Positions 15,576 through 64,000 of a stretch of DNA of 64,000 nt are shown here, piece by piece. Numbering within the stretch: position 1 is the first letter of the stretch; each line of letters opens with the position of its first letter. The position numbers and the translations under genes were made by a program. This DNA comes from Cenococcum geophilum (lineage: Eukaryota), in assembly GCA_050273025.1 (NCBI GenBank), contig CP158635.1:13082001-13146000 (forward strand), read 5' to 3'. The notes beneath the pieces are model-generated. The model was not told where the DNA came from. It saw nothing but the letters and a program-made list of their open reading frames with translations, and made no database searches.

Positions 15576-15672
15576 TAGGTATTATTCTATAATTACGTTC
15601 GCAATTTTAGTTTAACCGTCTATCTTTAAATAAAATGTAGTTAAGAGTTATATTTATATGCTTAATTATTTA
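15576..15672 (-). mobile_element. Short Gypsy-B integrase fragment at a rearrangement junction
   Basis: Matches ~48276-48371 (de-RIP LSTAFH.ETDGQTEIAN). Confidence 0.85.
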
Positions 15673-23700: not shown

Positions 23701-25079
23701 ATACTATTATAAGAGGGAGTACCTTTAATATAGACTTTATAGAGTAGGCTATTAAGGATTACTCTAATACTACTAAAGGTTTATAAAGAGGAAAGGCCTT
23801 AGTACGCAAGAGCCGCTTAAAGAGAGCTAGGACACTAGTGGATAAGAAGACGTTCTATAAGAAGCTAATACCTAAGTACCTAGCGTGCGGAATACGAGGA
23901 TACTCCCTTTAGGACTATTAGTATTTATTTAAAGATAAGAGACCTATAGGGGTTATAATCGAAGATATTTGTATTAAAAAGGCACTAAGGAAGGTAAAAT
24001 AAAATAAGGATCTTGCTGATCTAGTTACCATAATTAGACTTAAATAAGAAGACAAAGATTAATAACAATAAAATAAGAGTAAAAGAGTTCTATATCTTAA
24101 AGACATTACCTTCTATACGGACTTAAATAGAAGAATGTTACGGATAATAGACTATTAAATACGTCTAACTAGGAAGTCTATTAGCGTTTAATATAAGCCG
24201 ACTGCTACGCCGCCAACGGAAGCGCAAAATATCGTTAAGAGACGTTCGTCTAGACTTAAAAGGTAATGTATAACTATGGTATCTGTATCTAGGCCATCTA
24301 GGACCTATTAAGCTTTAAGGCCCTAAGACAACGGAATATTAAAACTGCAGCCTTGCTAAAAATTAAGCGTTAGGTCTTACGAAGGTTCTTAAATTAAAAT
24401 ATTAATAAACCCTATCTTAACGTCTATATTAACTAGACTAACCTTAAGGAAGTGTATATAAAAGACCTTAAAGAAAGCTTAAGAAGTAATTAAGGAGCTA
24501 AGTAAGGAATACTAAATAAGTACCCTTAGAGAGCTAAAATGGTTCCTAGGAATTTATATACTACACAATTATAGCTAGAGGCTCCTATAGCTATCACTTT
24601 ATCCCCCTCCTTAAGATCTAGTCCCTTAGATCTCTTAGCGTTATAGTACCGTTTTATTCTTTCTTATACCTTTTCCACTAATTCCATAAGGTCTGTATAA
24701 AGATTTATTAGTGTCTTTATTTTTTCTTTAGCTGTGCTACTTATTTTCTTCGCTTATTATAGTGATAATAATATTCTTAGCTTATATCCGTAATTTGCCT
24801 TAAATAGTGACGTGCCTATTCCTTCTTGCAGTGTTACATTATAATAATAATTCATTGCTTAACGTCTGATTTGGATCCCTATTAGGCCCACGCGGACTAC
24901 TCCTTATTTATATATGGGGAGAAAACTCTATTTAAGAAAATGAGAAAACCCCGTAATCTATCTCCCCGCCTTTTAGGACTCGCCTACTTAGCGCCTACAA
25001 GTCGCCTATAGTGCTCTACTACCTTACTATTTAACCTTTTTAGGAACTACTGCTGCCGTAATAAGCCTACGGACGCGCT

Positions 25080-28000: not shown

Positions 28001-31000
28001 ATAAATATGTTTTTCTTCCTTTTATAGAAAGGCCCTTTGTTTGCATTATTGCTATAAGTAGTGCTATAACACCTGAGAAGTTATATATAAATTTTTAATA
28101 AAAGTTGGTGAAACTAAGGAAAGCTTATACGTCTTTAATGCAGTTAGGGGTTTACCATTCGGTAATTATATGTACCTTCTTAGGGTCTATACAGACACCC
28201 TTAGTAGTAATAATTAGTTTAAGGTATTTTACTTCTGTAACTGAGAATTTGTACTTCTTTAAATTAATATAAAGTCCTATGTCCCTAAGGCGCTGTAGGA
28301 CCTTTTAAACGTGCTCAGTATGCTTAGAAGGGTTATTACTATAAATAAGTATATCGTCTAGGTACGCAGAGTAGAAGTCGTTAAGGTAGTCCTATAAGGC
28401 GTTATTAATATAGCTTTAAAAGCTGCCTAGGCCGTTATATACGCTAAAGGGTATAACGGTATATTTAAATTGGCCAAAGCGCGATATAAATGCGGTTTTC
28501 TATTTGTCACCTTCTCGTATTTAAAGGCGGTTAAAGGCGGCGATAATATCGAGCTTAGTATAGATTTTGGCTTAGCTAAGCCGCTTAAGAGTCTTACGTA
28601 TAAGTAGTATAGGGTATTAGTTCTTAATTGTAATAGCGTTAAGTCCTCTATAGTTAACGTAGAATTAAATACCTCCTCCTAGCTTCTTAGTAAGGAGGAT
28701 AGGAGCGGCTGCTAGGGACATGCTGGGGCGAATAAACCCTTTATTAAGGTGTTTGTTAATATACTTTTTAATAACTAGAAGTTCGTTTTTTAATATTAGG
28801 TAGGGTCTCTTATAGAGTAGCGTTTTTCCTTATTTAATATTAATGGTATAGTTATTAGGTTAATGTAGGGGGAGTATATCTGCGCTCTTTTATAAGCACA
28901 CGTTAATAAAGTTATGGTACCTTTTAGGGAGGAGCTTACGGAGTTCCTTATTAGTAAGTCCTTTTTTAAGCTTTATAAACTTCTTAAAGTCTAAAGGTAA
29001 AAGTCCATAGAGTTCTATGGGGGCATCGTTTTCTAAAAGGTTAACTATATCTATTCTGTTACTATAGAGGATATAGTTCTGTTCTTTATTAAGCTTATAT
29101 AGTTATAATTGGGAGGCTGCGGTAACAGTCTAGCCTTTCCTACGTGCTATATGGTAGAAGGCCGCGGCACTTATATAGTGGTAGTTGGTTATAGGTAGGG
29201 TAATAAGGGGTTCCTTAGGTTGGTATCCTAAGGAGTAGATAGAGGCGGCTAGGCTATATCCTAAGTAGGTCTCTCTACAGTATTTAGAGTTAAAGGTTAC
29301 TTCTCTCTTTTTCTAGTTAATGGTGGGGTTATATTATTTAAGCCAGTTTATTCTAAGGATAATAGGGTAGTTAGCAAGTAGTGTAATATAGGCCTAGAGT
29401 TCTTCCTGGTGCCTATTTATATCTAGGTGGAGTTATGCTATATAGGTAATCTTCTATGTGGTATAACTACTATTGGCAAGTTATAGGGCGCGGGCTTTAG
29501 TAAGGGGTAAGGTAAGTAGGTTATAAGTACACATAAATTAGGTATCTATAAATTTATTAGTAGCTCCGCAATTAATTATAGAACGGCTTTTATATTATTT
29601 TTTAGCAGTAGTTCCTATTACGGGTAAAACTATCTATTTCTGTCTATTTATCTTTACTAAGTTATCTATTAAGCAGGCCGATATATAGATCCCCTTATTA
29701 TTAGGGCGTCCCAACCTGCGACTTAGGGCTAGGACTTGGCGTTTTCCGTTTCCGTATCCAACTCTACCTCTATTACTGCGTCTTTATTTTATACAGTAGT
29801 GGCATATAGTAACGTATTTAGTGTTTAAGGTACTAGGTTAGATATTAGGCGGCAGCTGCTAAACCTAGCTATTAGGCAGTTTAGGCTATAGCTATAATAA
29901 CCTTCTTAACAATATTTATAGTAACGCTTTAGCTTCTAAAGTAGCTCGCGTTCTCCGTCTAGTAGCTTCTACGGGAAGGTTAGTATAGAAAGGTTAATAT
30001 TAGGACTAGTAGTATTACTTAGGGTAGTAGGCGTTAGTAGTTTAATAGGTCCGGAGGGCTTCTATAGGGAGGTCTTTAGGTAGGGGTTTGCAGTAGCGAT
30101 CTAATTTAGTTATTATTTAATCTTCTGTATAGCTGCTACTATATTATAAACATTATTATAGTTATAGCTAGCGGCTGCGTAACTAAGGTAATAAGTGACT
30201 TTTTTAAGGAGATCTTTCTGGTCTTTAGTATTGTCTTAGGTAAAGGCTCCGGTGTATTTCTGGAATTTAATATAAAACTCGTTAAATAATTTAGTGGGGC
30301 TTATCTTTAGGGTACGTAGTTTAGCTTCGTTAGTAGCTAGTAGGTTATAGTCGCGGTATATTAGGTTGAGATCGTTAAGGACTTCTTAGTAGGACTACTA
30401 CTTTTAGGGGCTATTAGTCTCCTATTAGGCGAAGAGTCTATTAAACGGTATACCCTTTATTCGCCCAATAATATAGCTAATCTTAGTATCTTTTATAGGA
30501 AAAAGGTAGGCGCTTTAAGTTAGTTTCTTATGGATTTATATCTTCTAGTGGCTATATTCTTTACAGTCTCCCTAGAAAACTAGGGGATTAAGGTAACGTA
30601 CATTAGACCCTATAGTAATAGCTTAGGTTTAGTCGTTATAGCTTTCGTTATCGCTTTAGTAGGGGTTCCTATTAGATAAGGCTGCTTGGCGCTAACCCTC
30701 CGTTAAGCGTTAAGTAGGTAAAGTTGCTAGGGGCGTAAAGACTTAAGTGGCGTTATATATAATAAAGAGGTATCTAGCGTTATTACAAATGTGCTTATTA
30801 AGCTAAGATTATAGGTATTTAATTATGCCTTCTCTTTTAGTGACCGTAGCAATAAGTGCGATCTCAGCCTTCTTTAACTATTAGATGTCGCGTTTAGACA
30901 CACGGAGGTCGTCTTCGGTTTCTTAACGCGTATTATTAGCGAGCGCCTCGCGAGCTTATAGGTCTTAGATAATATCGCGATCTTAGGCAGTACGCATCTT

Positions 31001-36574: not shown

Positions 36575-38563
36575 TGCTAGGCGTAGTTCTAGCGGTCGCG
36601 CGTAAGTATAAGCCACCGTCGTTTGACGTGTGCCTCCCCTGCGATGCATGCATCTCAGGGGGATTCTCTGGGTGTTTTTTAGGGTTCTTTTGGTTGGTTT
36701 TGGTCTTTTTAGGCCGGGTGCAGCAAGAGCTCCTTTTTAGTGTTACATTATACGTAAACTATATAATTAGTAATAGCGATACCTAATTATTCTGCGCATA
36801 ATTAATATAATATCTTAGATACTATTCTAGTGTCTAATTTAATCTTTCCGTTTATTTATCCGTCTGCGGATAATATATAGTAGAAGTTACTGCTCTTACT
36901 TCCTACTCTGCTAAGAATACCTTCTAAAATCCTGCTATAAATCTTAGATCTCTATCTAATATAATTTTACTTAGTGCTCTATATCTTGCGAACACTTCTT
37001 TAATATAGATTTTAGTAATATCCTCCGCTGAGATTTCTTCTATACATACTACAAAGTAGCCCTATTTAGTTAACTTATCCACTATCCGCCCCACGGACTA
37101 TTTGCTTACGCTTATAGTCCTACATAGCTTAATAAAACACCGAGCTCAACGGAACACGAGCCCCACCACATGGTTTTAAAGCTATAGATTTCTACGTAGG
37201 CTATATATATACAGAAATCCTTGGTGGAGCACCTTAAGCAATAGCCTAGCTACAATCCTGCCAAATATTACGAGTCTGAGGCCCCTGCACGTTGTATAGC
37301 GTCCTCCTTTGCCTACTTCTTCATAGTATGTGCAGCCGCCCTACCTGCCTTCTCTGCTTCCTTTTGAACTCGTTGTAATACTTTAGGCCGTCCATCTACT
37401 ACAGATATTAAGCCTCCTTTTAAACAACCCGTTAGTCGGTTCTTTAACGCTTTGCGCGGGCGCGTACTACTACCTATATTAAATATAGGTCCTCCTCTAC
37501 CAATAAGTAAAGTATGGCATTCTTCCTAGCGCTCTAACACCGACGCGAAATCACGATTTGTCTTACTGGCTAAGTGTATCCTTTTAGTGTTTAATACACG
37601 AGTAACTATCCACTAGCTGCCACTAATTCTAATACAAAATCCAGACTTATTAAAGTTGTATTTGTTATATAGTAGAATACCCCATTACTCCTTTATATTC
37701 CTATATCGCGGCAAGATTATTTACAGTAGCTTAATTAATCTCTATAGGCTTTTGCTTAACCTTATATACTATTAGGTTTTATTTAAGAAATCTCTTAGTC
37801 CAGTTGCGTCTAAGAGTGCCGTTAAGCGCATGGAGCTTAAGGATACGCTGCGCGCAATTATGGACTTGATGGAACAGCTCGCCGACTTTAAGGCGGTCTA
37901 TTTAATTAATATAGGATAGGAGCATAGCCTTCTGGTGTTAATTAAGTATCTTATTACTGCTAGGCCTCTGCATCTTACTCTTAATGCCGTTAACGCGGTT
38001 ATAGATATATTTAAACGGCGCGTTATATAGGCGGGCTGCTAATTAAATATTAGGTGTTTTTATGCGTGATAACTTACGAAGTGCATCTTGCACGCGTATC
38101 TTAATAATTTCGGATTCTATAGGCATGGTTGTGGTAATTTAATTATATAAGGAAATAGGTAAGGCTTAATCTTAGGTATACGTTCCGTTAAACCCGGTGT
38201 TCCGTTAAGCTGCGTAGGACTATAAGCGTAAGCACGCAATGTCTTGTTCTTAGCGAGAGCTATATACCCTTAAATTTATATAGAATTTAACTTTTTACCA
38301 CACATGCAACCTTACCAAAAGGTAGCGCCGCACTTCAAAACTTACGCATACCCATCTTACCACCAAAAACAATCGATTTTCCAACTTTTAAGACCCAATT
38401 CCTACTGCCTAGCGAGCTTTAGGTGGATTTAATTGTCGTTTTACCCCCTTTCCCCTAACAGAAAATTCTTCTTAGGGGTGGTCCTAGCTTATAAGCGAGG
38501 CACGGACAGGAACACTAAACTACTACCACTACTACCACCACCAATACTAGGGGTCTAGTATTA

Positions 38564-41039: not shown

Positions 41040-41773
41040 AAATAAATAGGGGTCTAGAAGGAGGCAGCTCCTACTAGGCTTTTAGTAAAAAGATATTAGA
41101 GAGCAAAAGGATAGAAACAAATTGTAAAAGGATAGGAATAGGTGTTAGGATTTCTTATAGTTTTTCCTACCGTTTTCTTATTACCGAAGAGTTGTAGTAA
41201 CTTAGTGCTTTACTAAGGAGCTGTAAACCCCTAGGGGTTTATAAACTACTAGGATATAGCTACTAGTACATATTAAGCTGCCCAAGAGGGATTTATATAT
41301 ATAAAACTATAGCGCTATAGCCTAGAGGCTGCATGCGTAGTATTGTACGTAGTATAATACAACGGATTTAAAAAATAAAATAAAAAAAAAGCGTAAGTGA
41401 ATAGTCCGTAGGGCGGATATTACTAAAATCGCGTTATGCTCCTATTTAGTAATAGGATCTCTTAACTTTAGTAACTTAATAATAAAGTCCTATAATATGA
41501 CCTCCTATAGTCTCTCTAGTATTTTAATAGGTTATAGCCCTCCGTATAGCTTATGCTTTATTAGTTTATTTCTTTAGCAATCTAAATACTTCTTTATCAC
41601 TTTTCTAGCATGCCCTAGATTCCGTCAATAATGTATTCTTTTTAAAGTCTTAACACTAAGCCTATTGCTCCGTTGTGTCCTTAAGTTATTCCCTTATAGA
41701 AATCTTCCATAAAATACTCTATTATGCTTTTTAGGATATACTTTACTTCTTAATTTTTATATATATCTATCTA

Positions 41774-42264
41774 CGTTAGGAAAAAATTTACTAGCATTTA
41801 GCGAGCACCTCGCTACACTTCGCCGCACTTCGCCGCATTAAAAACAGACCATAGGCATTAAGCAGCATCTAGATAGCTATATATTATATATTATAGAAAA
41901 AAAAATTATATTTAGATAGCGCATTGGATATAGTATATTATGTAATTTTTTTATATACATTACTTATAAATTATAGAAGTTATTTAACTTTTAATAAAAA
42001 AAAAAAAAGCAAAATTTTAATTTTTTTAATTTTTTAATTTTTTATTAAAAGTTAAATAACTTCTGTAATTTATAAGTAATATATATAAAAAATTACATAA
42101 TATACTATATCTAATGCGCTATCTAAATATAATTTTTTTTTCTATAATATATAATATATAGCTATCTAGATGCTGCTTAATGCCTATGGTCTGTTTTTAA
42201 TGCGGCGAAGTGCGGCGAAGTGTAGCGAGGTGCTCGCTAAATGCTGGTAATTTTTTTCCTAACG
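41774..42264. mobile_element. Foldback MITE (491 bp, ~227-bp near-perfect arms)
   Basis: 41774-~42000 is the reverse complement of ~42038-42264. TA TSD (41772-73 and 42265-66). The empty site matches ~53075-53100. Confidence 0.93.
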
Positions 42265-45200
42265 TATAAGTCTTCTAGCTATACTTTTAGAATTCTTTAT
42301 ACCTAAAAGCTCTTTAGTATTTCGTAAACTCTTTCTAATTTGTTATTCTCTTAAGTTACTACTAGTTTAGGGTAATTATATCTAATTAATCTGTCCTTAT
42401 CTCTGCGTAGTATTACTCCTAATAGTTTCTTATCGTTCTATAGTTTAGCTTTTTTGCTAAGTGCATCTACTCTTGCATTTTTAGTTCCCTTAGTGTACTA
42501 AATCTTAAAATAGTATTCTATAAGCATCTCTACCTATTTAACTTATTTATAATTAAGTTCTTTTGTTATTAGGAACCCCGTTAGGTTCTTATAATCTATT
42601 TTAACTATAAATAGTTTTTCTACACCTTATAAGAATGCTCTCTATTCCTTAAGTACTGCAATTATACTTAATAACTCTTTATTATAGACGTCGTAGTTTA
42701 ACTCTAGTAGTATTATTTTTTAACTATAATATGCTACTAGATGCTATATATTTTTATACTTCTATAGTAAATATACTCCTAATATAAAGTCTAATACGTC
42801 TATTTCTATAACCGTATCTAATCCTAGTTAGTAAATTTTAAGAATTAGCTCTTTGTTACGGACGCTTTAAATACAATACTACAACTACTAGGAAAGGAGT
42901 CGGAAGAAGCTAGTTGGTTAATATAAGTACGGTCTAGGATGGAGCCGATAGAACTATGTGACGAGGAATAGTAATTAGGTCACATAATATAATCTATATA
43001 ATCTATATAATCTATAAGATCTACTATAGAGCGAACAGAGCAGATAGAGCAGATAGAGCAACGACTTTCTTAAGAGTACGGTTATGTATTTAAGGACCCT
43101 TAGCCCCTACCTAGATAGTTCCTTTCCTCGTAGTAATTCTTAGAATATAATTAGAGTTAATCTATTAGGCAACCACTCCACCAGTTATTATTACGTTATT
43201 AACTATTCGCGCACCTATATACCTAGCCTATTAACAGAACCTACCGTAGTTTCTACTACAAGGTTCTATTATACAATTACTACCTAGTTACGGTCTAATA
43301 AGTCAAACAATATGCCACCAAAAGCAGCTACTACAACGCCATTAACGGCGGCAACTACTTTAAGATTAGGTAACGACACTAGTATAGCAGACACTAACTT
43401 ACAATAACCTGTAATAGTAGGGTAGTTATAAGAGATAGTTGACCGGTTAACGGAAAATAATATAATATATAAAAATAGGATTAACGGGATAGGCGTAGTA
43501 AAGATTAAGCTACTATTAATCAAACGATTCTTAGGAGAGAGATTAAAGCTTAAAGGATTCCTAACGTAAATGCACTTTAAGGTTTTATAAGAGGGAGCTA
43601 AGCTGCCCACGTCTATGGATTAAGTAGCGTACGTAGGATTATTCCTAATAGGAAGGGCACTTAAATAGTTCAAACCTTACCTTACGGAAATACAAGTAAA
43701 TAGAATAACGACTATAAACTAAGACGTATGGTTTATGTTCTTAAGCTAAAGCGGATTTGCGGAATAACTTATATAAATATTCGGGGACCTAGAAGTAATA
43801 GTAATAGTAAAAAAAAAGCTTTAAGACCTAACGCAGTAAACCTTAGCAATTAAGTACACAACGTAGTTCTAGACGCTAGCTATATAAGTTAAGTAGAATA
43901 ATAGGGCGCTTATAGCATAGTATAAACAAGAACTTAAAGTAAAAGTCTAAGATATAATTATTCTAATAGAAGATGTGGATACCCTTAGGGAATTAATAGA
44001 TTAAGCAATTATAATTAATAATAGGATCTTCTAAAGGGAATAGACTAAGAGAGGCTAGGATAAAGTTCTATAGTTATATAAGACGCAAAGTACGCAATAA
44101 CTAAAGTTAAATTAGAAACTATAGTATAGCGTAGAGCTAATAGACCTAAGTAGTACTAAAGAAACCTATAAAAGATGGGGAAAATAATTATAGAAACCTA
44201 GAAGTTAAGGACTAAGTAATTAAAGGACTAAGGAGTATAGGCCAAATTAAGGATCTTAGTAGTAGAAGACGTTTAAGCGGACTTTATAGCAAAAGCAATA
44301 GTTTAAAGACGGAGCTTATATAAATTATAGAAAATAGGGTTATTTCGCTAGAGACTATAAAAGTAGTTAGAGTTACTACGTAATAAAGGGAACTAGACTA
44401 ATAGTATATAATATACACGTATAGAGGGATAATAGTATACTATAAGGAACAAAAGAGTATTTAATTTAAAGTTTTGCATTTTATTATAATAACGCATACT
44501 AAGTTTATAAAGACGCTAAGTACGGCGTAAGCTATTAGCCATAAGAGTTAAAGTTAAGAGGACTTAAAGGAACTATAGAGTTAGATAAAGAATAAGATTA
44601 ACTCTATAAGCTAGATTAAGATATTATAGTAATATATAGACAAAGATTAGTAATAATAATAATAGAGTTAGAGTACTTATTAATTAATAGCGATAAGGGA
44701 AAGAAAGGAACTAACTAGGAGTATTTAAACCTTAATAACGCAATTAAAGTAGAAACTAAAACCGCTATAAAGCAAGGTTTAGTAATAGGTATTATAATAC
44801 CGTTGGATATAGCATCTATTACTTTATAAGACGGAAGGAGTAATATCTATAGGTAATTAAGTAAGTAGACGACTACTAGTGCTAGCTTACCACTTAATAA
44901 AGGTAAAAGGCTAAAGGCTTAAGATTCTTAAGACGAGATAAAAAACAACTAAGATTCTTAAGATAAGATAAGGTATGCTTAAGGACCTATAACGGATAAT
45001 AACCAATAGAGTAGAGCAATAGCTTAGTTTAGCAATATATAAATAAGCTTAGAACGAAGTTTCCTAAAGGCATAAGATTCTTAAGACAAGGTAAGTAAGA
45101 TTTAAGACTCTTAAAATAAAATAAGAATACTAGTAAAGCCTAGTTAAACTAAGGTTAGAGCATAGCTTAAGAAAGAAGTAAGCTTAAGATTAAAGAATCT

Positions 45201-50200: not shown

Positions 50201-50615
50201 TTATTAGGGTTTAGAACGGCTCTATTTAATATAGCGACGTTAAGTTCTAATAGAGTCATTAGTGTCTTTAGAGTGCGTAAAGTAGTAGGTATATTTAATT
50301 CCTTTATATCTTAGCTTTTAGAAGGCTCTATTATATATTTAGGTATAATCTATAGCCTATAAATAAGTAGATTAAAGGGTCGTTGATCCAGAAAGGGACG
50401 TCGCAGGAATATAGTAGTCGTCCGTGCCATTGGTCGGCGCGTAGGTCTATATCACTACTATAACGTAGTTAAATTAATTTAAGCAATATTAAGATCGAAA
50501 GAGTAATATAAAAGCTTTAATTTAGCCTATTTAAAATATATATAAGCTTGTTGTTAATTTTATTATAAATTGATCAAATATTACCTGTATGTGGCTCGCT
50601 ATATAGGGTGGCTCG

Positions 50616-53600
50616 TGTAACGGAACCTTGTAGTAGGAACTACGATGGGCTCGTTATTAGGCTAGGTATATAGGTGAAGCAAATTAAGTTAACAACGTAA
50701 TAGCAATTGGTGGAGTAGTTGCCTAACAGATTAACTTTAATTATATTCTGAAAATCACTATAAGGAAGGAACTATCTAGGTAGGGACTAAGGGTCCTTAA
50801 ATACACAACCGTACTCCTAAGAAATTCTCCTTATACGTAATGTACGTCTTATCTATATTAGACATAACGTCCCTTACGTTTAACACAGCCAATACGTTCA
50901 ACCATTATGTAATTTACTTACTATTCCTTGTTATATGGTTCCACGGGTTCTATCCTAGACCGTGCTTATATTAACTAACTAGCTTCTTCCAACTCTTCCC
51001 TAAGTAGTTGTAACATCGTACTTAAAGCGTCCGTAACACCATCTCCCTCCTCTTTATCTTCGTCCTTAAAGATACCTAGTATCTCTAAGTCGTTTACTAG
51101 AGGTGTGATATCTATTTAATTAATTTGGTTAATATTGTTACTTATAATACCTAAAGCAATTTCTTCTCTTTCTTAGGTTAAGCGTCGCCTCCGTACTATC
51201 TCTTTAATACTATCGCTAGGTGAAGTAATAGCGATTCCTTACTCTCGTTATGCGAAAGAGGGGTTAAGTTATATTACGATTGCGAGTTCTTCCGGTCGCC
51301 AACCTTCTTCTTATTTTAAATGCACTCACGCCAATATATGTTTATTATGTGACGTTTGTTCTACGTCCAATATTAAGTATACGCGTCCTATTACTCTTAA
51401 TAGTCTTTAAGTTCCCTAAGTAATTTATTATAGGGTCTCGTGTTTAATCTACCGCTGCAAAGCTTAATAGTGAGCTGGCTTCTGCGCTGCTTAAGGTTCA
51501 GCGTGCCTTAGAAGAGTCCGCACGTGTCCTTAAAGCTTAGCGTCTAGCTTACGCTTATCTTTAGCGTTTAGAACGTGTCCGTAAGAAAGTTTATTTAAAA
51601 AAGTGGAAGCTCGTTTAGTAAGGTCTTTAGGAGTTAGGTAATAAGAGAACTAACTCTCCTTCTATAGTATAGGAAACAACTCTAAGTAATTTAGTAGTTG
51701 CTCTTCCTGGGTCCCCTTTAGGTAACTCGTTCTTCAATAATTCCTCCTTATTAATATTACCTAACCTATTTTCTTCCAATACTCCTATACTTTTCCTATA
51801 GCGTTCTTTAAATTCTCTAGTGGCTCCTAGGTAGTTTTAGTATAGCCTATCCACTTAACCTTATACTATATTTTATTGTTAATATCCTCGTAACTAACGA
51901 TCTTTAAAACTTACTATTTATCTTCTTCTTATCCTCTATACGTGTCTGCTTCGTAAACTAGTGGCTTAATATTCCTATATGCTGGCTCTAGTATTGCGAT
52001 ATGCTATATAGGGTAGATCTTTATTTTAGCTGGTAGGTTTAACTTAAATATAACTAGTAAAATCCTCTATATAATTTTAAAAGGTCCTAATCTAACGTAG
52101 TTTAACTTCTTGCTTAATTATCAACTCTTAAAATTTTTGTATAGTAGCCATACTTTATCCCCCTCCTTAAGATCTAGTCCCTTAGATCTCTTAGCGTTAT
52201 AGTACCTTTTTATTCTTTACTGTACCACCTTAGCTATTTCTGTAAGGTTTGCATAAAGATTTATTAAAGTCTTTATTTTTTGCTTAGCTTTACTACTTAT
52301 TTTCTTTACTTGGCGTAGCAATAATAATATTCTTAGCTTATATCCGTAATTCGCCTTAAATAGTAACGTACCCATTCCTTCTTATAGTGTTGTATTATAT
52401 ATAAACTATATAACTAGTAATAGCGATACCTAATTATTTTGTACGTAATTAATATAATGCCTTAGATACTGCTCTAGTGTCTAATTTAATCTTTCCGTTT
52501 AACCGTCTGTCTGTAGATAATATGCGGTAAAAGTTACTGCTTAAACTCCTTATTCCGCTAAAAATACCTCCTAGAATACTGCTATAAATCTTAAATCTCT
52601 ATCTAATATAATTTTACTTAGTACTCTATATCTTATAAACACTTCTTTAATATAGATTCTAGCAACATCTTCCGCTAAGATTTCTTCCGTATAGGCTATA
52701 AAGTATCCCTACTTCGTAAGCTTGTCTACTATTACTAAGATTATATCGTAATCTTATCCGGTAATAGGGTCTCTTAATTTTAGCAACTTAATAATAAAGT
52801 CCTATAATATAACCTCCTATAGTCTCTCTGGTATTTTAACAGGTTATAGCCCTCTATATAGCTTATGCCTTATTAGTTTATTTCTTTAGTAATCTAGACA
52901 CTTCTTAGTAACCTTCCTAGCTATCCTCTAGATTCTGTTAATAATGTACTCCTCCTAGAGTCTTAATACTAAGCCCGTAGCTCCGTTGTGTCCTTAAGTT
53001 AGTCCCTTATAGAAGTCCTCTACGAACTGCTCTACTATGCTTCTTAGGATATACTTCGCTTCTCGGTTTTTATATATATCTAACTATAGGTCTTCTAGCT
53101 GTGCTTCTAGAATTCTTTATACCTAAAAGCTTTCTAGTATCTTATAGACTTTTTCTAACTTATTCTCTTAAGTTACTATAATTTTTAGATAATTATACCT
53201 AATTAGTCCATCTATATCCTTTCGCAGTAAAGCCCCTAATAGCTTATCGTTATTTTATAGTTTAGCCTTTTAACTTAACGCATTGGCTTACGTGTTATCT
53301 GTACCCTTAGTATACTAAATCTTAAAATAGTATTCTGTAAGCATCTCTGCCTATCTAACCTATCTTTAGTTAAGTTCCTTTATTGTTAGGAATCCTATTA
53401 GGTTTTTATAATCCGTCTTAACTATAAATAGTTTCTCTATACCTTGCAAGAATGCTCTTTATTTCTTTAGTACTATAACTATACCTAATAACTCCTTGTT
53501 ATAGATGTTATAGTTTAGTTCTAGTGGTATTATCTTCCGACTATAATATGCCACTGGATGCTATCTATCTAGATACTTTTATATAAAATATGCTCCTAGT

Positions 53601-56600
53601 GTAAAGTCTAATATATTTGTTTCTATAACCGTTTCTAGTCCTAGTTAATAGATCTTAAGAACTAGCTCCTAGGTGAATAACTCTTTAACTTTTTTAAAGA
53701 GTTCTTACTGTTCCTCTCCCTATACCTATAGTTCTTCTTTCTTTGTTAATCGCGTAAATAGTTTAATATCTTTTAACCATTACGCTATAAACCTTCTGTA
53801 ATAGTTGCAAAACCCTAGGAATAATCTTAACTACGTAACGTTCTCTAGTTCTTACTAATTTACTATAGCCTCAATCTTCTTTAGGTCTATACTGAGTTAG
53901 CCTAGTTTAATAATAAATCTAACAAAATCGGTCTTCCTAGTAAAGAACTCGCATTTCTTAATTGCTACTAGCATCTGTTCTTCTTATAGTCTCTTTAAGA
54001 CCCATTTAACGTGTTCTCCATACTCTTCCTCGTTTATTAAGTAGATAATAATATTATCGAGGTATACTATAACAAATTCATCTAAATATTCTCCTAATAT
54101 ATTGTTAATACACTTCTGGAACGTTACTAGTACATTTATAAGCCCAAATTGTATAACTAATGGTTTATATAGTCCTTTCTTTAACCTAAAGGCTGCCTTC
54201 TATTTGTCGCCTTCCTTAATCCTAATCTAATGGTATACCTATCTTAGATCTATCTTCGTAAAGATTTACACATTACCTATCCTATCTTAGATCTCGCTAA
54301 TTAAGGGTAAAGGATACCTATCCTTCCTAGTAATGCTGTTTAACTGTCTATAGTCGATACACAGCCTTAGTTTGCTATTCTTCTTTAGTATAAATAGTAC
54401 TGGATATCCTACTAATAACTGCAATGGTCTAATATATCCCTTTCGTAAGTTTTCTTAAATAAACTCTTTAAGTGCTCTACCTTCTTCTTTGGTAAGCTTA
54501 TAGATTAGAAAGAACCTTAAACTTATTCCTAGTTCTAATTCTATCTTATAGTCCTATGCTGTATACTCTAACAGCTTTTTACTCTCTAGTAACCATAACT
54601 TTTTACTATATTTGTGGTATCTTTTTGGTACATAACTTAATCCTTAATTAGTCTCTTTATATATCGCTCCGACTTAGTACCATACCATCTTAGTTTATTG
54701 TCGCATCTTGCGGCGTTATATGTCTCTAATATTGACCTAACCTATAACCTAATTAATCTTTCGATTATATTCCTATAACTAAGGCATTCCTAATACTGCC
54801 TTATTATTCCCTAATAGTAATATATCGAAAGACATCTCAACCTATCTTCCTTTAATGGTTAGCTGAATAGGTCCTATTTTAAGATTAATAATGCCTCCTC
54901 CGTAGGCTATCGGATCTCCTAAAATTGTTACTAATAGGTAAGGACATTCCTTCTGTCTATATGGTAATCCCATTCTTTTAACTGCTGCTAGTAAGATATA
55001 GTTCCTTATTGCTCCACTATCTATTAGCGCCTTAAACTGTTAATCCTACCATTTAATTCTTAGATTTAGGTGTCGTCCTTAAATTCCTTTAAGGGTCTGA
55101 GGCTCTACTACTAGTTCCCTCTGGTCCTATAGGCCTCTACTTTTCCCAGCTGCTGGCTACTAGATCCTATTTATACTTAGTCCGACTTAGGCCAATACTT
55201 AGTTCGCTTTTTGTCTTTAATATGCTATAGACAGGTATTCTTTAAATATTCCCACCATTGTCGTCTATCTAGGTATTTTTCTATAAGGAATCTTCCTGGT
55301 TAAAGTATTAAGTCCCCTTATTCTTAAACTTCTACTAGGTGCCAACCATACATATACTTAGCATTTCGATACTTTGCCTTATCCGTCATCTAATATATCC
55401 TTATTAAATACTTTCGATTTTTGTCCTTTAGTGTTCTATGCATATTACACGTATTATCCATACATGCTATCCACGATAGTGTGTAATATACTTAGTGTCT
55501 TGGGTTAACTCTTAGCTCGTCTTCATCCTTAAGTTTAAACCTTTCTTATATTAATCTAAGCGTTACAACTTTGTTCGTAGGTACTAAGATATACCTTTTA
55601 CTTCTCTAGTCCTCTAATTACTCCTTTAGATCTTTTAATATCATAATTAAGGCTCCCTTAATGTAAGTTATAGCCTTTTCTATAATCGGGTGGTCTTAGA
55701 CAACTTTTTCGTCCAGCTATATATAGAAATCTTCCCACTTATCGTTGTGTCGTTACCTATACCACTTTTAGTATAGTTACTTAAGTGTATACGGTTCGTT
55801 TGTAAGGAAGTATCTCTTTATTACTACATTATAACAGCCTTTAGTATATCGTTCTTTAAACCTAGTAGAAATCCCTAGATCCTCTTCTTGTTCCAGTTCA
55901 GTAAGCTACTTAGCTCTTAGTATGCCTATTCTAGGCCTATTAGTGACTCTTTATACTAGCGCTCTATCCCTTATACGTCCCAATGTACTAAATCTCTTGT
56001 CTAGTTTCTGTTCTTACCATAAGGTAATTCTTACCCTAAATTCCTCTATGGTTTCTTTTACATTACGTCTTACGAGTAGATCCTTAAAGTCTTCGTGCTT
56101 CTTAATCTTAGTATTAACTTTTTAATCTTTAGGCTAAACACTATATTCCCCTAGTAAGTCTTCTAGGTCTATATATCTGTCTCCTAATCTAATCGCTATT
56201 TGCGCTATAAATTCTCTAATCTATAAAGAAGCTCCTTACCTCTTGCTTATAGGTATCCTAATTCATACTCCAAATTCTTAATCCCTTAGATTCTTTAATC
56301 TTAAGCTTACTTCTAACTTAAGCTTAGCTCCAGCCTTAGTCCAACTAGGCTTTATTAGTGTCCTTATCTTATCTTAAAAGTCCTAGATCTTACTTATCTC
56401 GTCTTAAAAATCTTATACCGTTAGGAATTCTTATCCTAAGCTCATTTATATGTCTTTAAACTAAGCTGCTACTCTACTCCATCTATTTCTATTTATTATA
56501 GGTCTTTAAGCGTACCTTATCTTATCTTAAGAATCTTAGTCGTCTCTTATCTCGTCTTAAGAATCTTAAGCCTTTAGCCTTTAGCCTTTATTAAGTAGTA

Positions 56601-58643
56601 AGCTAGCACTAGCAGTTATCTGCTTACTTAATCGTCTCTAGATATTACTCCTTCCGTCTTATAAAGCAATGGATGCCGTATCCAACGGTATTATAATACC
56701 CGTTACTAAACCATGCTCTATAGCGGTCTCAGTCTCTGCTTCTATTACATTATTAAGGTTTAGATACCCCCAGTTAGTTCCTTTACTATCCTCGTCGCTA
56801 TTAATTAATAAGTACTCTAACTCCATTATTATTATTACTAATTATTATCTGCATATTGCTGTAATATCTTAATCCAGCTTATAGAGTTAATCCTATTCTT
56901 CGTCTAACTCTTAAGTCCCTTTAAGTCCTTTTAACTCTGGTTCTTGTGGCCAATAGCTTGCACTATACTTGGCGTCTTTATAAATTTAGCATACGTTATT
57001 ATAATAAAACGCGAAACTTCTAATTAAACACTCTTTTGTTCCTCGCAGTACACTATTATCCCTCTATACGTATATATCTCCTACTATTAGTCTGGTTCCC
57101 TTTATTATATAGTAACTCTAACCATCTTTATAATCCCTTATAAAATAACCTTATTTCTCGCAATTTATATAAGCTCTATCTCTAAACCACTAACTCTATT
57201 ATAGAGTCCGCCTAAACGTCTTCTGCTAATAAGATCCCTAGTTTAGCCTATACTCCTTAGTCCTATAATTACTAGATCCTTAACCTCTAGGTTTCCATAG
57301 TTTCTTACTCTATCTCTTATAGGCTTCTTTAGTACCGCTTAGGTCTATTAGCTCTGCGCTATACCATAGTTTCTAATTTGGCTTTTATTGTTGCGTATTC
57401 TGCGCCTTATATAACTATAGAACTCTATCCTGGCCTCTCTTAGCCTATTCCCTTTAGAAGATCCTATTATCGATCTTAATTACTTAATCTATTAATTCCC
57501 TTAGGGTGTCCGCATCTTCTATCAGAATAATTACGTCCTAGACTTTAGCCTTAAGTCCTTATTTATACTATGCCATAAGCGCCTTATCGTTCCATTCGAC
57601 CTATATTATAAGTATTTAAAACTATATCATATACTTAATTACTAAAGTTCGCTGTGTTAGGTCCTAAAGCTTCCTTTCTACTATAGTTGTTGCTTCTGGG
57701 TCCCTAAATATCTATATTAATTGTTCCGCAAATCCTGCCTAGCTAGAAAACACAAATCGTACCTCTTAATTAGTAGTAGTCATTCCGTTAGTCTGTATCT
57801 CTGTTAAGTAGGGTTTAAACTATTTAAGTGCCCAACCCATTAGGAATAGTCCTGCGTAGGCTATCTAATCCATTATCATAGCTAACTTAGCCCCTTCTTA
57901 CATAACTTTAAAATGCATTTGCGTTAGGAATTCTTTAAGCTTTAATCTCTCTCCTAAGAATCGTTTAATTAATAGTAACTTAACCTTTACTGCTCTAATT
58001 CCATTAAGTCTGTTTTTAAATATCGCATTATTTTCTATTAATCGATCCACTATTTCTTGTAATTGTCCTACTATCACAGGTTGTTGCGAGTTAGTATCCG
58101 CCATACTGGTGTCACCCCCTAACCTTAAAGTAGTTGCCGCCGTTAATGGCGTTATAGTGGCTGCTTTTAGTGGCATGTTATTCAACTCCTGTATTTGTTA
58201 CTATAACTAGGTAGTAATTGTGTAACGGAACCTTGTAGCAGGAACTACAATAGGCTCGTTATTAGGCTAGGTATATAGGTAAAGCAAATTAAGTCAACAA
58301 CGTAATAGCAATTAGTGGAGTGGTTGCCTAATAGATTAACTCTAATTATATTCTAAGAATCACTACAAGGAAGGAACTATCTAGGTAGGGACTAAGGGTC
58401 CTTAAATACACAACTATACTCCTAAGAAATTCTCCTTATACGTGATGTACGTCTTATCTATATTGGACGTGACGTCCCTTACGTTCAACATAGCTAACAC
58501 GTTTAACCATTATGTGACTTACTTACTATTCCTCGTTATATAGTTCCACGGGTTCCATCCTGGACCGTGCTTATATTAACTAACTAGCTTCTTCCGACTC
58601 TTCCCTAAGTAGTCGTAACATCGTACTTAAAGCGTCCGTAACA
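50616..58643 (-). mobile_element. Gypsy-A copy 2, full-length (8028 bp)
   Basis: 423-bp LTRs at 50616-51038 and 58221-58643. TSD GCTCG (50611-15 and 58644-48). PPT 51039-51060. gag ATG 58176, protease DSGA ~55015, YLDD ~54058, integrase, chromodomain ~51790-51900. Confidence 0.97.
51147..51834 (+). pseudogene. Antisense accessory gene of Gypsy-A: Zn2Cys6-type cluster + coiled coil, one intron
   Basis: Codons at 51240, 51249, 51270 and 51312 are TAC/TAT (RIP forms of TGC/TGT); 51321 TGC and 51348 TGT are intact. Spacing is C-x2-C-x6-C-x13-C-x2-C-x8-C. A 55-bp intron (51379-51433) joins it in frame to a helical, heptad-like exon. Confidence 0.75.
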
Positions 58644-60153
58644 GCTCGCTTCCTAGTCAACTACGTTAAGGAGAAAAGTCGATGTGTTGATGTTCAAAGC
58701 GGCAGTATATTTAGCTACCCTAAATGAGAAGGCGGTAATGTAAATCGGTTATAACTAGGGTCACCTTCATAACCCCATCACATACGTTAGGGCTTGCCAG
58801 AAGTCTAAAACGAACTAGCTTCTACAGTTAGATATTATTAAATTAGGAAGTTTATATAGCTTAAAGACGTGCTTAATAAAACATTCGGCTACTAATATTA
58901 TATTAATTAAGTCTATAGGAATCATATATCGCATTTTTATAAGACGGTTAATAACTACTATAACATTTATAAACCCATTACTATTAGGCAGGTCGACTAT
59001 AAAGTTAATTAAGATATCTCGCTATCTTTATATTAGAATTAGCAATAGTTAAAGTACTCCTTACTTCTTTATATAAGAGGTCTTTCTACGCACGTACATT
59101 CTATATACTCGAATGTATTTTCGTACATAGTCGTGCATTATAGGCCAGTAATATACTCGTTAGATAATCTTATAGGTTTTCGCATAGCCAGGGTGCTCTA
59201 CTATAGGGGAATTATATACAAATTTAAGTATCTTAAATTGTAAGGGTTTAGAATTCGGGACTACTATCTTCTATTAATAGTATAACCGATTATTGCGGAT
59301 TTCGCATTTAGTGAGTATAATATCCTTATATTACCATTTCCCTATTTAAATCGCTTTTATTATATCTGCTATCTAGGGGTCGTTCTTATATTCGTGCTTT
59401 ATTAATTTATTAATTTTTATATCCTACTTATTAAATTCCAATTCATTCCTATTAAGCTCCGCGTTTAGAAACATAGGGCGTAATTTCTTAAAGTATTTAG
59501 TGGGCAGTAGAATTTATAATTAATTTATAATCTGTTTATTAGAGGCGTTTATAGATAAGTCCTATAATTATTATATTAATAAGTTAGGCTTCTAATTAAG
59601 TTTACCAGGTTAGTATATAATCTTAAAGTTAAATTATAAAAGACATTCGGCCTAACGAATTTGGCGCTGCGTTAATTACTTTATAGTTATAAAGTACTAT
59701 CGGGTTTTATAGTCCGTTAATACGCGTATTAGGAATAATAATCCTTTAAGTTCTAGACGCTATTATTTAAAGCATCTAATAATTATAAGTAGTTCCTTAT
59801 TATATATCTTATAGTTTAATTTAGCAGGGGTAAGTTTCTAGGAGAGAAAGGCTACTAGGCGTAGCTCGCCGTTCTTATTATATTATGATAACACTCCTCC
59901 TAATACATAATTAGACAAGTCTGTTTTAATAATATATTTAAGGTCCGGATTAAAGTAGGTAAAAATTAGAGCAGTTATAAAATAATATTTTAGATTATTA
60001 AAAGCTTATTTACATTTAGTAGTCTATTTAAATCTTATATTCTTCCTTATTAAGTTTACTAATAGCTAAACAATTTTTAAGAAGTAATTAATAAATTAAT
60101 AATAGAAATTTGCAAATCCTAGAAATCCTTAAATATCTTATACACTACTAGGA

Positions 60154-60314
60154 TGTCACGGATTCCGGCCTGGCGGCCCTTAGCGAGCCTTGGCACCCCA
60201 CAGTATATAGAGTGCTGGTCCCTTCGCACCTCTTGCACCTTCGTGCAATATCCTGTCGTGTACCATAGTTAATGCTACGACCTTCACAGAGCCTCCTGAC
60301 CTCGTTCCATGACA
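60154..60314 (+). mobile_element. Solo LTR (161 bp), barely RIP-mutated
   Basis: Termini TGTCACGGA...TCCATGACA. TSD TAGGA (60149-53 and 60315-19). Central TATATAG followed by a pyrimidine-rich tract. Confidence 0.93.
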
Positions 60315-63300
60315 TAGGACTTTCCCAGTTTATAATTACAGCAATTTTCTTAGGGTCCATTTTAATTCTATTATAGGATATAATTAGGCCTAAGTATATA
60401 ACTTTAAACGTATAGAACTTACATTTCTTAATATTGCATTATAAGCCCGCGTCTTATAGGCGTTTAAGGACTATTTAAATATGCTTCTAATACTTAAAAA
60501 GCAAAGATAAATAGATTAAGATATTATTAATATACGCGGTAATAAATATATTAAGGAATTTATAAAGCGTATTATTAACGTATTACTAAAACGTACTAGG
60601 ACCGTTCTTTACACTAAATAGCATTACTAGGTATTTAAAAAGTCCCCATTATAAATAAAAAGCCGTATACTTTTCGTCTCCTTCGCGAACACGGATTTAA
60701 TTAAAGGTAGCAACTACGTCAAACTTTATAAAGTATTATACTTTTACTAAGCAGTTAAGCGTTTCTTAAAGCAGAGGAATTGGATATTGGTTTTAAATTA
60801 TAATCGCATTTAGGGCTTAATAATTAACACAGAACCTTAAGCCTCCTCTAGGTTTCTTAATAAATAGTATAGGTAAGGCGAATAGTAATTAACTAGGGCA
60901 AATAAATCCTTTCTCTAGGTGCTCTTTAAGGTATTATTATATTATTAGCAGCTCTTCTTATAATATACCATATAATAGGCCGAACTTTAGCGTTATACTA
61001 GGTTTAAGTTTTATCTTAAAATCGTGCTCATTTTAATATAGAGGTAGTTAGTTTCCGAATTATTTCTTAAACGTATTAATTAGATTATAATATTCTTTAG
61101 GTATAAGAGGTCGGGGGTTAATATATTGCTTCAGTTCTAACGCTTTCTTAATATCTTCTAGTATTATAGTAAAGATCTTATAGTCTTATTTTCTTACTAA
61201 CAAATAAAAGGGTGCGGCTTATATTATACGAATTTTAAGGGGTTTTAATATATTATCTTCGCATTCTTTACCACAATTAGCAGTTATAACTTTATCGTAT
61301 TAGTTTAGGGTTTATAGTAAGGGTAATTTATATTATATTAAATTCGAATAGTTGTGTACATATTTATAGGGCAAGTGGTATTTTAAATAATAACTTCGGC
61401 AGTAGGTTATACGGAATTTTAGTATTTCTTTAACCTAGCTAATTAAAGGGTTATATTATTTTAGCTATCTATATCTAAGTATTACCTTATAATGCTTTAA
61501 GGGTGTTATAAATAGGGAAACGTATTTAAGGTATTTGCCTATCCGCATCTTTACAAGAGCGTAGTGCGTTAGTTTACCATATATTAAAGGCTTACTATTA
61601 AAGCCTTATAGGCCTTAGGGCTTATTAAGTTTCTTTAAATTTAAGCGTTAAGTTTTTACGTAGTTTATATTAATAAAGCCTATACTAGTAGCTCCGCTAT
61701 TTATAAGGATTTATACTTCCTTCTATTTTCTAAGTATTTAAATTTCGCTGAGTATATTAAGGGAGTTATATTATATATCAGCGCTAAAAGAGCCTAGACA
61801 CTTATACTCTTCCACTTCTTATCCTAAGGCGCGACTTGGCCCTAAAACAACTCATTTTCCAAGTTAACTAAAGGTAAGATGCTTTATAGCAACCAAGTAT
61901 AATTTATAGAATAAGTATAATTTATAGAACGAGTGCGACTTAAGGACTAAGAGGAGCTACAGCGGACCTTTTTAAAAGGGTAAGTTTGGCAATCCCTTTA
62001 AATATATCCCTTTTTTCTACATCTAAAATATTCTCTATTTGCAGCTTATATTCTTTATTTGTTAGTTTTTAAGGGTGTATAGGATTAAGTAGCGTTAAGG
62101 TCCATAGGGTTATATATAGGGCTTTTAGGTCTTAAAAACGGATTGCGCTTTAGGGTATATACCAATTTTATAAAATTTTAAACGCAAGGTATAGTTAGCT
62201 TTAGAGAATAAGTTTATTTATTATATTAAAGGTCCTTATTAATTTGTTAATATATTATAGCAAATTTAGGTAAGTTCTTTAGTAGTTCTTTACCTACTAG
62301 CTATGCTCTAATTTTATCTAAAATAGCTTAATAGAGAGTAGTAACTTTAGCGGCTTTATTCTAATCTAGTTTACTAATAAGGCCTAAAAATTCCAAAAAG
62401 AAGCTAGTAAAGTCTCGGTTCCATTATTATAGGTTTTTAAGTTTAGTAATAGCTGTGTGTTTGCAGCTAGCGTTATTATACGTTCGTTCTAGTAGAGAGA
62501 TAAAGATTTTAAAATTAACGAAGGTGCCGTTACGGAAGAATAGGTCTATAGTTTATATAGCGACTTTACTTAAACGAGACATTCTATAGCTAATCTTACT
62601 AGCTTTAGTAGGGTATTGGTTATAGTTTATTAAAAGTTTAAGATAGAGCTTAGTTATAAAGGGATATAGGTTATTTTAATTTCCATTAAATATTAGAGGG
62701 TTAGGGAGCTTTTTAGATTTTGTAGTAGGTACTAGGTTTATTATAGGTACGGGTTAAGCTACCGTTACTAGTTTGGGGTTTATATTTAACAGGTTAGGTT
62801 CGTATATAGTTATTTTAATTTTGTTTATAGGTGTTACTATTAGGGTCTCTACTATAAGTACTTTAGGGTTACGGAGTTCTTCGCGGATTGCTCCTATTAA
62901 TTACTAGTGCTAAGATTCTAATATCACTCGGTATTAGGCCAAAGCATCTATAAAGGACTATTGTATTATAGTTAACTATTCCCTAACTAGGGCTATAATG
63001 CTTATAGTTAACGCGGAGGGTTCGAGTTCGTTTGCCATTTTAATAGTGGTTATTTTAATGTAACATAATATAAGGGCGCGAAGAGACTTTAGGGAAGATT
63101 TAAAGGAATAATATAAATTCTATCTAAATCTAAGGGTATATAGCTCTCGTTAAGAACAAGACGTTACGTAAAGAAGAAAAGGGAATAATAAGAGAATTAT
63201 ATAATTAAATAGTCAGGGGCTTAGTGGTCGATGTGTGCGTACGTACGCACGCGGTCTTTGACGGACTTTGGTAGAATTTAATTAATCTAGCAGAATTCGG

Positions 63301-64000
63301 CAGAATTTGGTCAAAGCGTCGGAATTTATCTGTCGAGTGTTTTACTGAGACATTCCTATTATAACTAGGCTAGTCCCGTTACAGTAATAACAAGCTAAGA
63401 TAATATAGTATTAAGTAGGAGTAACTTATAAAGAAACAGACAAAGGACTAAGTTATATACTAAAGAAATACCATAAGTATAGTAAGAAACTATAGTTACT
63501 AGAAAGTAAGAAGCTATTAAAATATATAGTATAGAACTATAAGATAGAATTAAAACTAGAAATAAGTTTAAGGTTCTTTCTAATTTATAAGCTTACTAAA
63601 GAGGAAGGAAGAGCACTAAAAGAGTTTATCTAAGAGAACTTATAAAAGGGATATATTAAACCATTATAGTTATTAGCAGGTTATCCAGTACTATTCGTAC
63701 TAAAGAAAAACGGGAAACTTAGGCTATGTATTAACTATAGATAGTTAAACAGCATTACTAGAAAGGATAGGTATCCTTTACCCTTAATTAGCGAAATCTA
63801 AGATAGGATTAGCAATATATAAATCTTTACAAAGATAGATCTAAGATAGGCGTACTATTAGATTAGAATTAAGGAAGGCAATAAATAGAAGGCAGCTTTT
63901 AGGTTAAAGAAAGAACTATATAAACTATTAGTAATATAGTTTAGGCTTATAAACGTACTAGCAACGTTTTAAAAACGTATTAATAATATATTAAGAGAGC

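Follow-up and report, generated by a model that had tools for sequence, protein, structure and literature searches.

A 64,000-nucleotide stretch of the Cenococcum geophilum genome (NCBI GenBank assembly GCA_050273025.1, contig CP158635.1, positions 13,082,001 to 13,146,000 of the forward strand; hereafter the window, with positions counted from its first letter) carries a Ty3/Gypsy chromovirus, a long terminal repeat (LTR) retrotransposon, and between the pol core and the 3' LTR of this element the opposite strand holds a second reading frame that is interrupted by a short intron (Table 1). We consider it very likely that this frame is a real and conserved antisense accessory gene of one fungal Ty3/Gypsy chromovirus family, of which the window contains a dead copy. 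The copy in the window is a pseudogene inactivated by repeat-induced point mutation (RIP) and is itself without function. The gene was nonetheless judged to be protein-coding and under purifying selection, because substitutions in its relatives show the codon periodicity of the antisense frame, with a change of register at the intron, and because its protein has outlasted its DNA in identity.

The gene had been proposed from the letters of the window alone (the original prediction), and that reading of letters and frames from 51147 onward agreed with the sequence and its translation. The plus strand from this position translates as IPKAISSLS*VKRRLRTISLILSLGEVIAIPYSRYAKEGLSYITIASSSGRQPSSYFKCTHANICLLCDV..., and the frame of exon 2, entered through the split codon T/GG after the 55-base gap, as SRV*STAAKLNSELASALLKVQRALEESARVLKA*RLAYAYL*RLERVRKK..., which is rich in heptad-like Leu, Ala, Glu, and Arg. 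The start position is ATA in this copy, the six codons of the cysteine cluster are TAC (51240), TAT (51249), TAT (51270), TAT (51312), TGC (51321), and TGT (51348), and eight premature stops interrupt the frame under the standard code (51174, 51445, 51538, 51562, 51616, 51619, 51628, and 51670). Under the same code, the longest open frame between 44 and 54 kb of the window has at most 57 codons. By the customary thresholds, RIP is marked by a high TpA/ApT index together with a low (CpA+TpG)/(ApC+GpT) index. These were 1.62 and 0.51, respectively, for the element (GC 0.334), which lies in AT-rich, RIP-type sequence with a GC content of 0.30-0.37 from 49 to 58 kb of the window. At sites where two relatives free of RIP (L002 and L003, see below) agree, 88 of the 145 window differences were of the RIP type (G>A and C>T), while 17 ran in the reverse direction. 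By this excess and by both indices, the element is a RIP-mutated repeat.

Relatives were recovered at both the protein and the DNA level. A word search with the exon-1 translation of the window returned two RIP-like relatives, and a profile made from this translation (read through TAA/TAG) and one relative, run in an exhaustive HMMER search of 1.84 billion representative proteins, matched 116 proteins at E<=1e-3 and 26 at E<=1e-10, well beyond what chance would give. Nearly all of the 116 were short RIP-like open reading frames (ORFs) with MP.. at the position of the window's ATA, continuing into the intron. In P0027, one such RIP-like sequence, two cysteine modules stand in tandem, seen as two separate HMMER matches. 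Another of the hits, P0091, shows no RIP-like character and fuses exon-1-like to exon-2-like sequence, and searches seeded with P0091 and then with P0122 gave a set of non-RIP'd proteins. In cluster look-ups the relatives were named "hypothetical protein", bar one: the exon-2 fragment P0147 is labelled "vacuolar-type H+-ATPase subunit I/STV1", probably a misannotation of its coiled coil. For DNA copies, metagenome contigs were scanned with a nine-sequence alignment, which gave 75 loci, most of them RIP'd and from one metagenome. Four DNA copies were non-RIP'd (L001, L002, L003, and L008; GC 0.45-0.48, RIP indices near neutral), and L002 and L003 are apparently intact elements with gag, reverse transcriptase (RT), RNase H, integrase, SH3, and chromodomain. 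The copy at L001:950-1618, with a 64-base intron, a frameshift in exon 2, and pol in several broken frames, died without RIP. In L002:1-7438 the order is pol, LTR, and gag plus protease on one strand, and the contig is therefore either two tandem elements with a shared LTR or a circularly permuted assembly of a multicopy element.

The alignment of 90 copies shows what the window copy has lost. The start codon is ATG in 15 and ATA in 71 copies; each cysteine position is TGY or TAY only, bar 2-5 gaps or misalignments per position; the donor is GT in 25 and AT in 63; and the acceptor is AG in 81 and AA in seven. Because RIP changes G to A, G is the older state at the start, the cysteines, and the donor. 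All three non-RIP'd copies that span exon 1 (L001, L002, and L003) have ATG, six TGY codons, a GT donor, an AG acceptor, and a TAG stop. These copies bear out the corrections for RIP on which the original prediction had leaned, i.e., ATG for the ATA start, cysteine for four tyrosine codons, and GT for the AT donor, and with them the view that the window holds a RIP-killed copy of a real gene. The end of the gene had been placed too far downstream, at 51834. Because the relatives end in ..SSDTP[VI]PF[LSP], the true stop in the window is the TAG at the end of exon 2, kept in 83 of the 90 copies, with seven unaligned there. The predicted overlap of this end with the chromodomain coding region holds for the last ~10 chromodomain codons.

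The intron, too, is a constant feature of the family: it is 55 bases long in 85 of the 90 copies and 46-95 bases in all 88 with measurable length. Six relatives (P0122, P0140, P0142, P0145, P0146, and P0148) are intron-less and share the junction ..SDAEW/S[RQ]V.., exactly the 51378/51434 splice predicted from the window. In P0123 and P0141, the last exon-1 codon is followed by a Cys codon and then by intron sequence, as expected of an unspliced GT donor. The intron-less database sequences probably derive from spliced antisense transcripts. The position of the gene within the element is equally stable. In 75 of the 76 gene copies with a C-terminus, the other strand carries the chromodomain end of pol no more than 300 bases away, and these homologues lie antisense at the 3' end of chromoviruses.

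Having located the gene opposite the 3' part of pol, we asked which of the two strands carries the constraint. One alternative is that only the C-terminal tail of Pol on the sense strand is coding and that the antisense frame is a shadow ORF without a product. Substitutions were counted by codon position in both frames and summed over pairs of the four non-RIP'd copies. Exon 2 varied most at antisense position 3 (340/716, rate 0.475), followed by position 2 (192/716, 0.268) and position 1 (147/707, 0.208). Antisense position 3 is here sense position 2, so that the most variable site is the one that a constrained sense protein could least afford. In exon 1, where the wobble positions of both frames coincide, antisense position 3 was again the most variable (106/226, 0.469), position 1 was intermediate (62/229, 0.271), and the least variable was antisense position 2 (26/226, 0.115), which is sense position 1, i.e., the order of the antisense frame. 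The intron was flat, at 0.26-0.29 for all three positions and with no codon periodicity, and the chromodomain, as a control, showed rates of 0.327, 0.122, and 0.040 at sense positions 3, 1, and 2, respectively. The periodicity moves by one base across the 55-base intron, which fits a spliced antisense gene alone and is not predicted by a shadow ORF. Transversion diversity, which RIP does not produce, gave the same pattern over the 90 copies in exon 2 (0.136 vs 0.065 and 0.070), and by this measure coding behavior extends to the first 32 codons. Between L002 and L003, the sense tail (69.8% identity) is less conserved than the DNA (82.9%), and the antisense protein (85.3%) is more conserved than either. 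As the original prediction required, the antisense frame is conserved in both exons outside its overlap with the chromodomain.

What speaks for a sense-only tail is a feature that the original prediction had not mentioned and that was unexpected, namely that the pol frame is open across the gene. The pol ORFs of L002 (3709..7437) and L003 (29..4069) continue for ~300 codons past the chromodomain, stop-free through the gene and the polypurine tract (PPT) into the LTR, the PPT stretch contributing acidic residues to the end of the pol frame, and in L008, a more distant non-RIP'd copy, the frame is open over exon 2. When the synonymous codons of the antisense gene were shuffled 5000 times per copy and pol-frame stops were counted, L002 and L003 had zero stops across the gene against shuffle means of 5.0 and 4.5, and shuffles with zero stops made up fractions of 0.0012 and 0.002, respectively; L002, L003, and L008 are related, and these tests of openness are non-independent. 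In the two remaining minus frames, L002 has 12 and 8 stops and L003 has 10 and 2. A short motif on the sense strand, ..ELFP..NPF.., is shared by L001, L002, and L008 and faces the variable part of the antisense protein (tail regions L002:3709-4700, L003:29-990, and L008:1-470, all on the minus strand). Set against this openness are the codon periodicity and the identities given above, the existence of intron-less relatives, and a pol tail in which no Pfam domain was found beyond the chromodomain, and taken together we regard a shadow ORF as extremely improbable. At the protein level the sense tail is not conserved, yet it seems to be kept open, and in intact elements Pol is likely translated through the region of the antisense gene, such that both strands would be read. 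A non-coding spacer between pol and the PPT was rejected, as both strands are open in intact copies.

A further alternative is that the antisense transcript is itself functional, as a regulatory or small-RNA-generating non-coding RNA, and that the frame is never translated. Antisense transcription of retroelements is common, and the present data contain no protein evidence, but antisense codon periodicity, six invariant cysteines, the conservation of start and stop, and a frame that only splicing restores all argue for selection at the protein level and make such an RNA very unlikely. Several points nevertheless weigh against an antisense gene. The substitution counts come from four non-RIP'd DNA copies only, of which L001 is frameshifted in exon 2, and the pairwise counts are non-independent. 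The source records of the six intron-less relatives are JGI contigs of 921-1423 bases, and their origin from RNA is presumed. Because the conserved C-terminal motif faces the helix of the chromodomain, it may be kept for the sake of pol. An RNA raw-read run (X21) on 51040-52300 at 80% likeness gave 24 reads, none of them inside 51126-51641, and the joint 51378/51434 was found in none of four runs from the organism itself (one of raw RNA reads, two of certain or possible RNA contigs, and one of DNA); the window copy is RIP'd and its donor mutated, so both results are uninformative. Other joints among the runs on 51040-52300 came from single low-likeness contigs.

The antisense gene encodes, in intact relatives, a protein of ~200 residues with a basic N-terminus, a six-cysteine module, a helix of ~75 residues, and an acidic Ser/Pro-rich tail with a conserved end. 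The six conserved cysteines followed by a long helix had been expected, and the spacing C-x2-C-x6-C-x13-C-x2-C-x8-C is found in P0122, L002, and L003. An AlphaFold2 model of P0122 (30 relatives) contains a single helix at residues 77-151 with a predicted local distance difference test score (pLDDT) of 96-99. A homodimer model of P0122 residues 28-152 scored 0.45, compared with 0.02 for the best of three controls; 21 of 30 proteins that had been solved as one-chain pairs attained this score, and none of 23 solved as single chains did, and, among eukaryotes, it was attained by 17 of 29 solved pairs, but by only one of the seven without an older solved relative, and by none of 30 single chains. 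The runs shared at least 66% of contacts with a partner pLDDT of at least 75. The model supports homodimerization through the coiled coil but does not show it, and its contacts (90-136 and 115-115) are antiparallel.

The original prediction had gone further and read this layout as that of a Gal4-type factor. Zn2Cys6 clusters follow the rule C-x2-C-x6-C-x(5-12)-C-x2-C-x(6-8)-C, the Gal4 dimer is parallel, and the run of basic residues after the second Cys is the DNA-contacting part. A canonical factor of this kind would be a Zn_clus member with CGG-type sites in the LTR and a parallel coiled-coil dimer. The part of the claim that stands is the general architecture: the protein has six Cys in two C-x2-C halves, spaced close to the Zn2Cys6 rule, and directly after them a predicted dimerizing helix, as Zn_clus factors do, and then an acidic tail as in those factors. 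Weak matches to Zn_clus (PF00172) at E<=0.1 were also obtained for five of the 74 family members. The assignment to Zn_clus itself did not hold. The best match (17.0 bits, E 0.0063) is below the 21-bit cut-off and covers only positions 18-37 of 39; more precisely, it is the N-terminal half of the cysteine module that matches the second half of the profile, and the first half of the module may thus resemble the second half of Zn2Cys6. In addition, the central loop has 13 residues, one beyond the rule, the AKEGLV after the second Cys lacks the run of basic residues, and the dimer model is antiparallel. DUF3716 (PF12511) fits better, although it too stays below its cut-off of 22: L003 exon 1 scored 20.1 bits (E 6e-4), L002 18.6, and P0141 15.4 (E to 0.018), with matches spanning positions 3/4-59 of 59 in three of the 74 members at E<=0.1. 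We therefore consider a canonical Gal4-type factor unlikely, and prefer a protein whose layout might work like a minimal Gal4-type factor (cluster, helix, and acidic tail) without Zn_clus membership.

These sub-threshold scores also count against a zinc-module protein as such, as do the structural results. The cysteine module was modeled at low confidence (pLDDT 56-72 in the P0122 model; mean 57.8 in a domain-only AlphaFold2 model from 74 sequences), and because of this low confidence it admits no valid fold comparison. A Foldseek search against the PDB found nothing at E<=0.001, and a sequence profile search of the PDB found only Mediator subunit 9, at E=1. A Pfam scan of the window's own translation, in which four of the cysteine codons are lost, gave no Zn_clus match and nothing relevant (best WRKY, E 0.098). 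The cysteine module, which is DUF3716-like, may nonetheless bind zinc and nucleic acid.

DUF3716 leads to proteins with some bearing on both the function and the origin of the antisense gene. According to excerpts of the respective papers, REP9-1 and REP9-2, which are carried on a class II transposon of Zymoseptoria tritici, contain this domain (PMC8232023); the Fusarium DUF3716 protein PSC58 is called the orthologue of Neurospora NCU05718 (PMC10776026); and NCU05718 binds double-stranded TTAGGG directly, without an annotated DNA-binding domain (PMC4650311). As far as these sources go, DUF3716 proteins resemble the antisense protein in a near-full-length profile match, in being fungal-specific, in their repeated occurrence on transposable elements, and in having one DNA-binding relative, but the match is below threshold in the few members that show it, and in the excerpted text the binding region of NCU05718 is not assigned to DUF3716. 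DUF3716-like domains also occur in cellular fungal genes (PMC10776026, in part), and the nearest Atlas clusters of the antisense protein are unnamed Ascomycota hypothetical proteins, one neighbor cluster (score 0.77) having DUF3716 in 28% of its members. Both observations would suit a fragment of a host gene that was captured once and has been carried passively. Such a history appears highly improbable given the constant location in 75 of 76 copies, the presence of the gene in elements whose antisense proteins differ by ~40-50%, and the persistence of purifying selection, all of which favor an accessory gene of the element itself.

An antisense gene at this site of a fungal chromovirus has already been published, as far as secondary accounts describe it. 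The brtn gene is an extra gene of Boty-like Ty3/Gypsy elements in Botrytis cinerea and Sclerotinia, where it lies antisense in the interval from pol to the 3' LTR (Zhao et al. 2011 Virology 417:248, via partial texts of PMC8365987, PMC7264820, PMC4227169, and PMC5987419), and, in an excerpt of the last of these, a Monilinia transcript matches both a chromodomain-bearing truncated Pol and BRTN (PMC5987419). From these accounts, Boty and the window element are alike in being fungal chromodomain Gypsy elements with an extra gene in antisense orientation in this interval, and the Monilinia transcript fits a gene that adjoins the chromodomain as it does here; the likeness is one of location and orientation, taken from descriptions, and no match carried the brtn name. 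In plants, antisense ORFs between pol and the 3' LTR are termed aORF-3R and include those of maize Grande, rice RIRE2, Silene Retand, and PvRetro13 (review PMC7264820, in part). By location (the strand opposite gag-pol, between pol and the 3' LTR) and by conservation (90 aligned copies, antisense codon periodicity, and a conserved protein), the gene in the window belongs with aORF-3R, and, in what the review reports, aORF-3R are likewise present in most family copies and conserved like the other genes of the element. They differ, on the same partial account, in their plant hosts, in residing mostly in non-chromovirus elements, and in showing no sign of a sequence relationship, whereas the antisense gene described here has a defined cysteine module with a coiled coil and overlaps fully with the pol frame. 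Literature on DUF3716 and on antisense ORFs of Ascomycota chromoviruses, with the brtn paper itself outside its scope, gave no account of the architecture of the antisense protein or of double coding. The new parts are the protein features of this family and the open pol frame across the gene.

How such a gene could be maintained and used can be outlined as follows. An intron survives retrotransposition when it is antisense to the genomic RNA, and this is presumably how the 55-base intron has been kept. The antisense transcript would start upstream of 51147, in the 3' LTR or on the way to it, and at least ~20 codons upstream of the start position, because the open frame of P0140 extends that far; the intron would then be removed from it. 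The product would dimerize via its long helix, its zinc-bound cysteine module would contact nucleic acid, and the protein would act in trans on the DNA or RNA of its own element, e.g., on LTR transcription or silencing; the original prediction had put the promoter in the 3' LTR and seen the product as a putative trans-activator, repressor, or anti-silencing factor. We put forward such a nucleic-acid-binding regulator acting in trans on the element tentatively, as a possibility with somewhat less than even chances. Parallels exist among retroviruses: HBZ of human T-cell leukemia virus type 1 (HTLV-1) and ASP of human immunodeficiency virus type 1 (HIV-1) are likewise encoded close to the 3' LTR on the strand complementary to the genomic RNA, and HBZ is also spliced and has a dimerizing helix, but neither shows a sequence relationship to the antisense gene and their hosts are different.

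A more far-reaching version would have ~690 bases doubly coded, with Pol extending ~300 residues past the chromodomain into the LTR on one strand and, on the other, a spliced and dimeric DUF3716-type zinc protein that binds its own LTR or chromatin and sets transcription or escape from silencing. The element would then supply its own regulator, in analogy to the antisense proteins of retroviruses, and DUF3716 would count as a DNA-binding domain associated with transposons. We regard this full combination as speculative and rather unlikely. Its parts matter in their own right. LTR retrotransposons are mostly thought to need gag and pol only, and a conserved third, antisense gene for a zinc module and a dimerizing helix would, if true, mean that a group of fungal elements supplies its own nucleic-acid-binding factor, with a bearing on how these elements are switched on, silenced, and targeted. 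In RIP-rich genomes, gene finders do not see the gene, and the records found say "hypothetical protein"; hidden by RIP and unannotated, it is systematically missed in the annotation of fungal transposable elements. The stop-free pol frame over the gene would be a clear example of long sense/antisense double coding among eukaryotic mobile elements, and the sub-threshold link to DUF3716 suggests a testable function for that domain.

The element that hosts the gene was delimited by its LTR pair and its pol core (Table 1). The LTR edge beside the PPT starts with TGTT on the minus strand. Residues 2-932 of the L002 pol core matched window 54616..51800 by tblastn at 64% identity, with the domains themselves identified on L002; Pfam places Chromo at residues 894-942 of the L002 pol ORF, and its location in the window was transferred through the same match. 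RT, RNase H, integrase, and a C-terminal chromodomain in this order, with gag upstream and LTRs, make the element a Ty3/Gypsy chromovirus, as read from Pfam matches to the L002 pol and gag ORFs and, for the window, from the 64% pol match and the LTR pair.

Table 1. Positions in the window of the chromovirus copy, its parts, and the antisense gene
Feature	Positions	Strand	Remarks
Ty3/Gypsy chromovirus copy	50615-58643	-	holds the antisense gene
3' LTR of the chromovirus copy	50615..51038	-	424-base match, 92.7% identity to 58220-58643
Polypurine tract, directly inside the 3' LTR	51039..51072	-	reverse complement purine-rich, abuts the LTR edge
Post-chromodomain tail of the pol frame	51040..51769	-	spans the whole antisense gene; RIP stops in the window, stop-free in intact relatives
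Antisense gene, dead copy	51147-51801	+	between the pol core (from 51800) and the LTR edge (51038)
Exon 1: start position, basic Ser-rich N-terminus, six-cysteine cluster	51147..51378	+	window translation; many database relatives begin MP.. here
Six-cysteine module C-x2-C-x6-C-x13-C-x2-C-x8-C	51240..51350	+	four of six codons are Tyr in the window copy
55-base intron, phase 1	51379..51433	+	ATACGC...TAG; donor AT in the window, GT in intact copies; acceptor AG
Exon 2: coiled coil, acidic Ser/Pro-rich tail, conserved end ..SSNTPILFL	51434..51801	+	stop TAG at 51799-51801
Chromodomain coding region of pol	51770..51916	-	final ~10 codons shared with the end of the antisense gene
pol core (RT, RNase H, integrase, SH3, chromodomain), RIP-degraded	51800..54616	-	tblastn of the L002 pol core
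5' LTR	58220..58643	-	424-base partner of the 3' LTR, 92.7% identity

Elsewhere in the 64-kb window a second copy of the antisense gene is absent, as blastn and tblastn matched 51029-51795 alone. The same Gypsy family, or one close to it, is represented by further fragments at window 14928-15583, 24595-24852, 36741-37085, 41418-42854, and 63472-63999, with 49-68% identity to the L002 pol core, and the antisense gene is absent from each of these five. Matches to the LTR end were also seen at 4795-4928 and 42854-42988. Other, distant Gypsy families account for the pol-like stretches at 8368-11229, 26139-28916, and 59577-61023 (~27-35% identity to the L002 pol core). In a DNA run (X1), 11,912 contigs matched window 51040-52300 (1.26 kb) at 80% likeness or more, a count that implies very many diverged copies of the element family in that organism.

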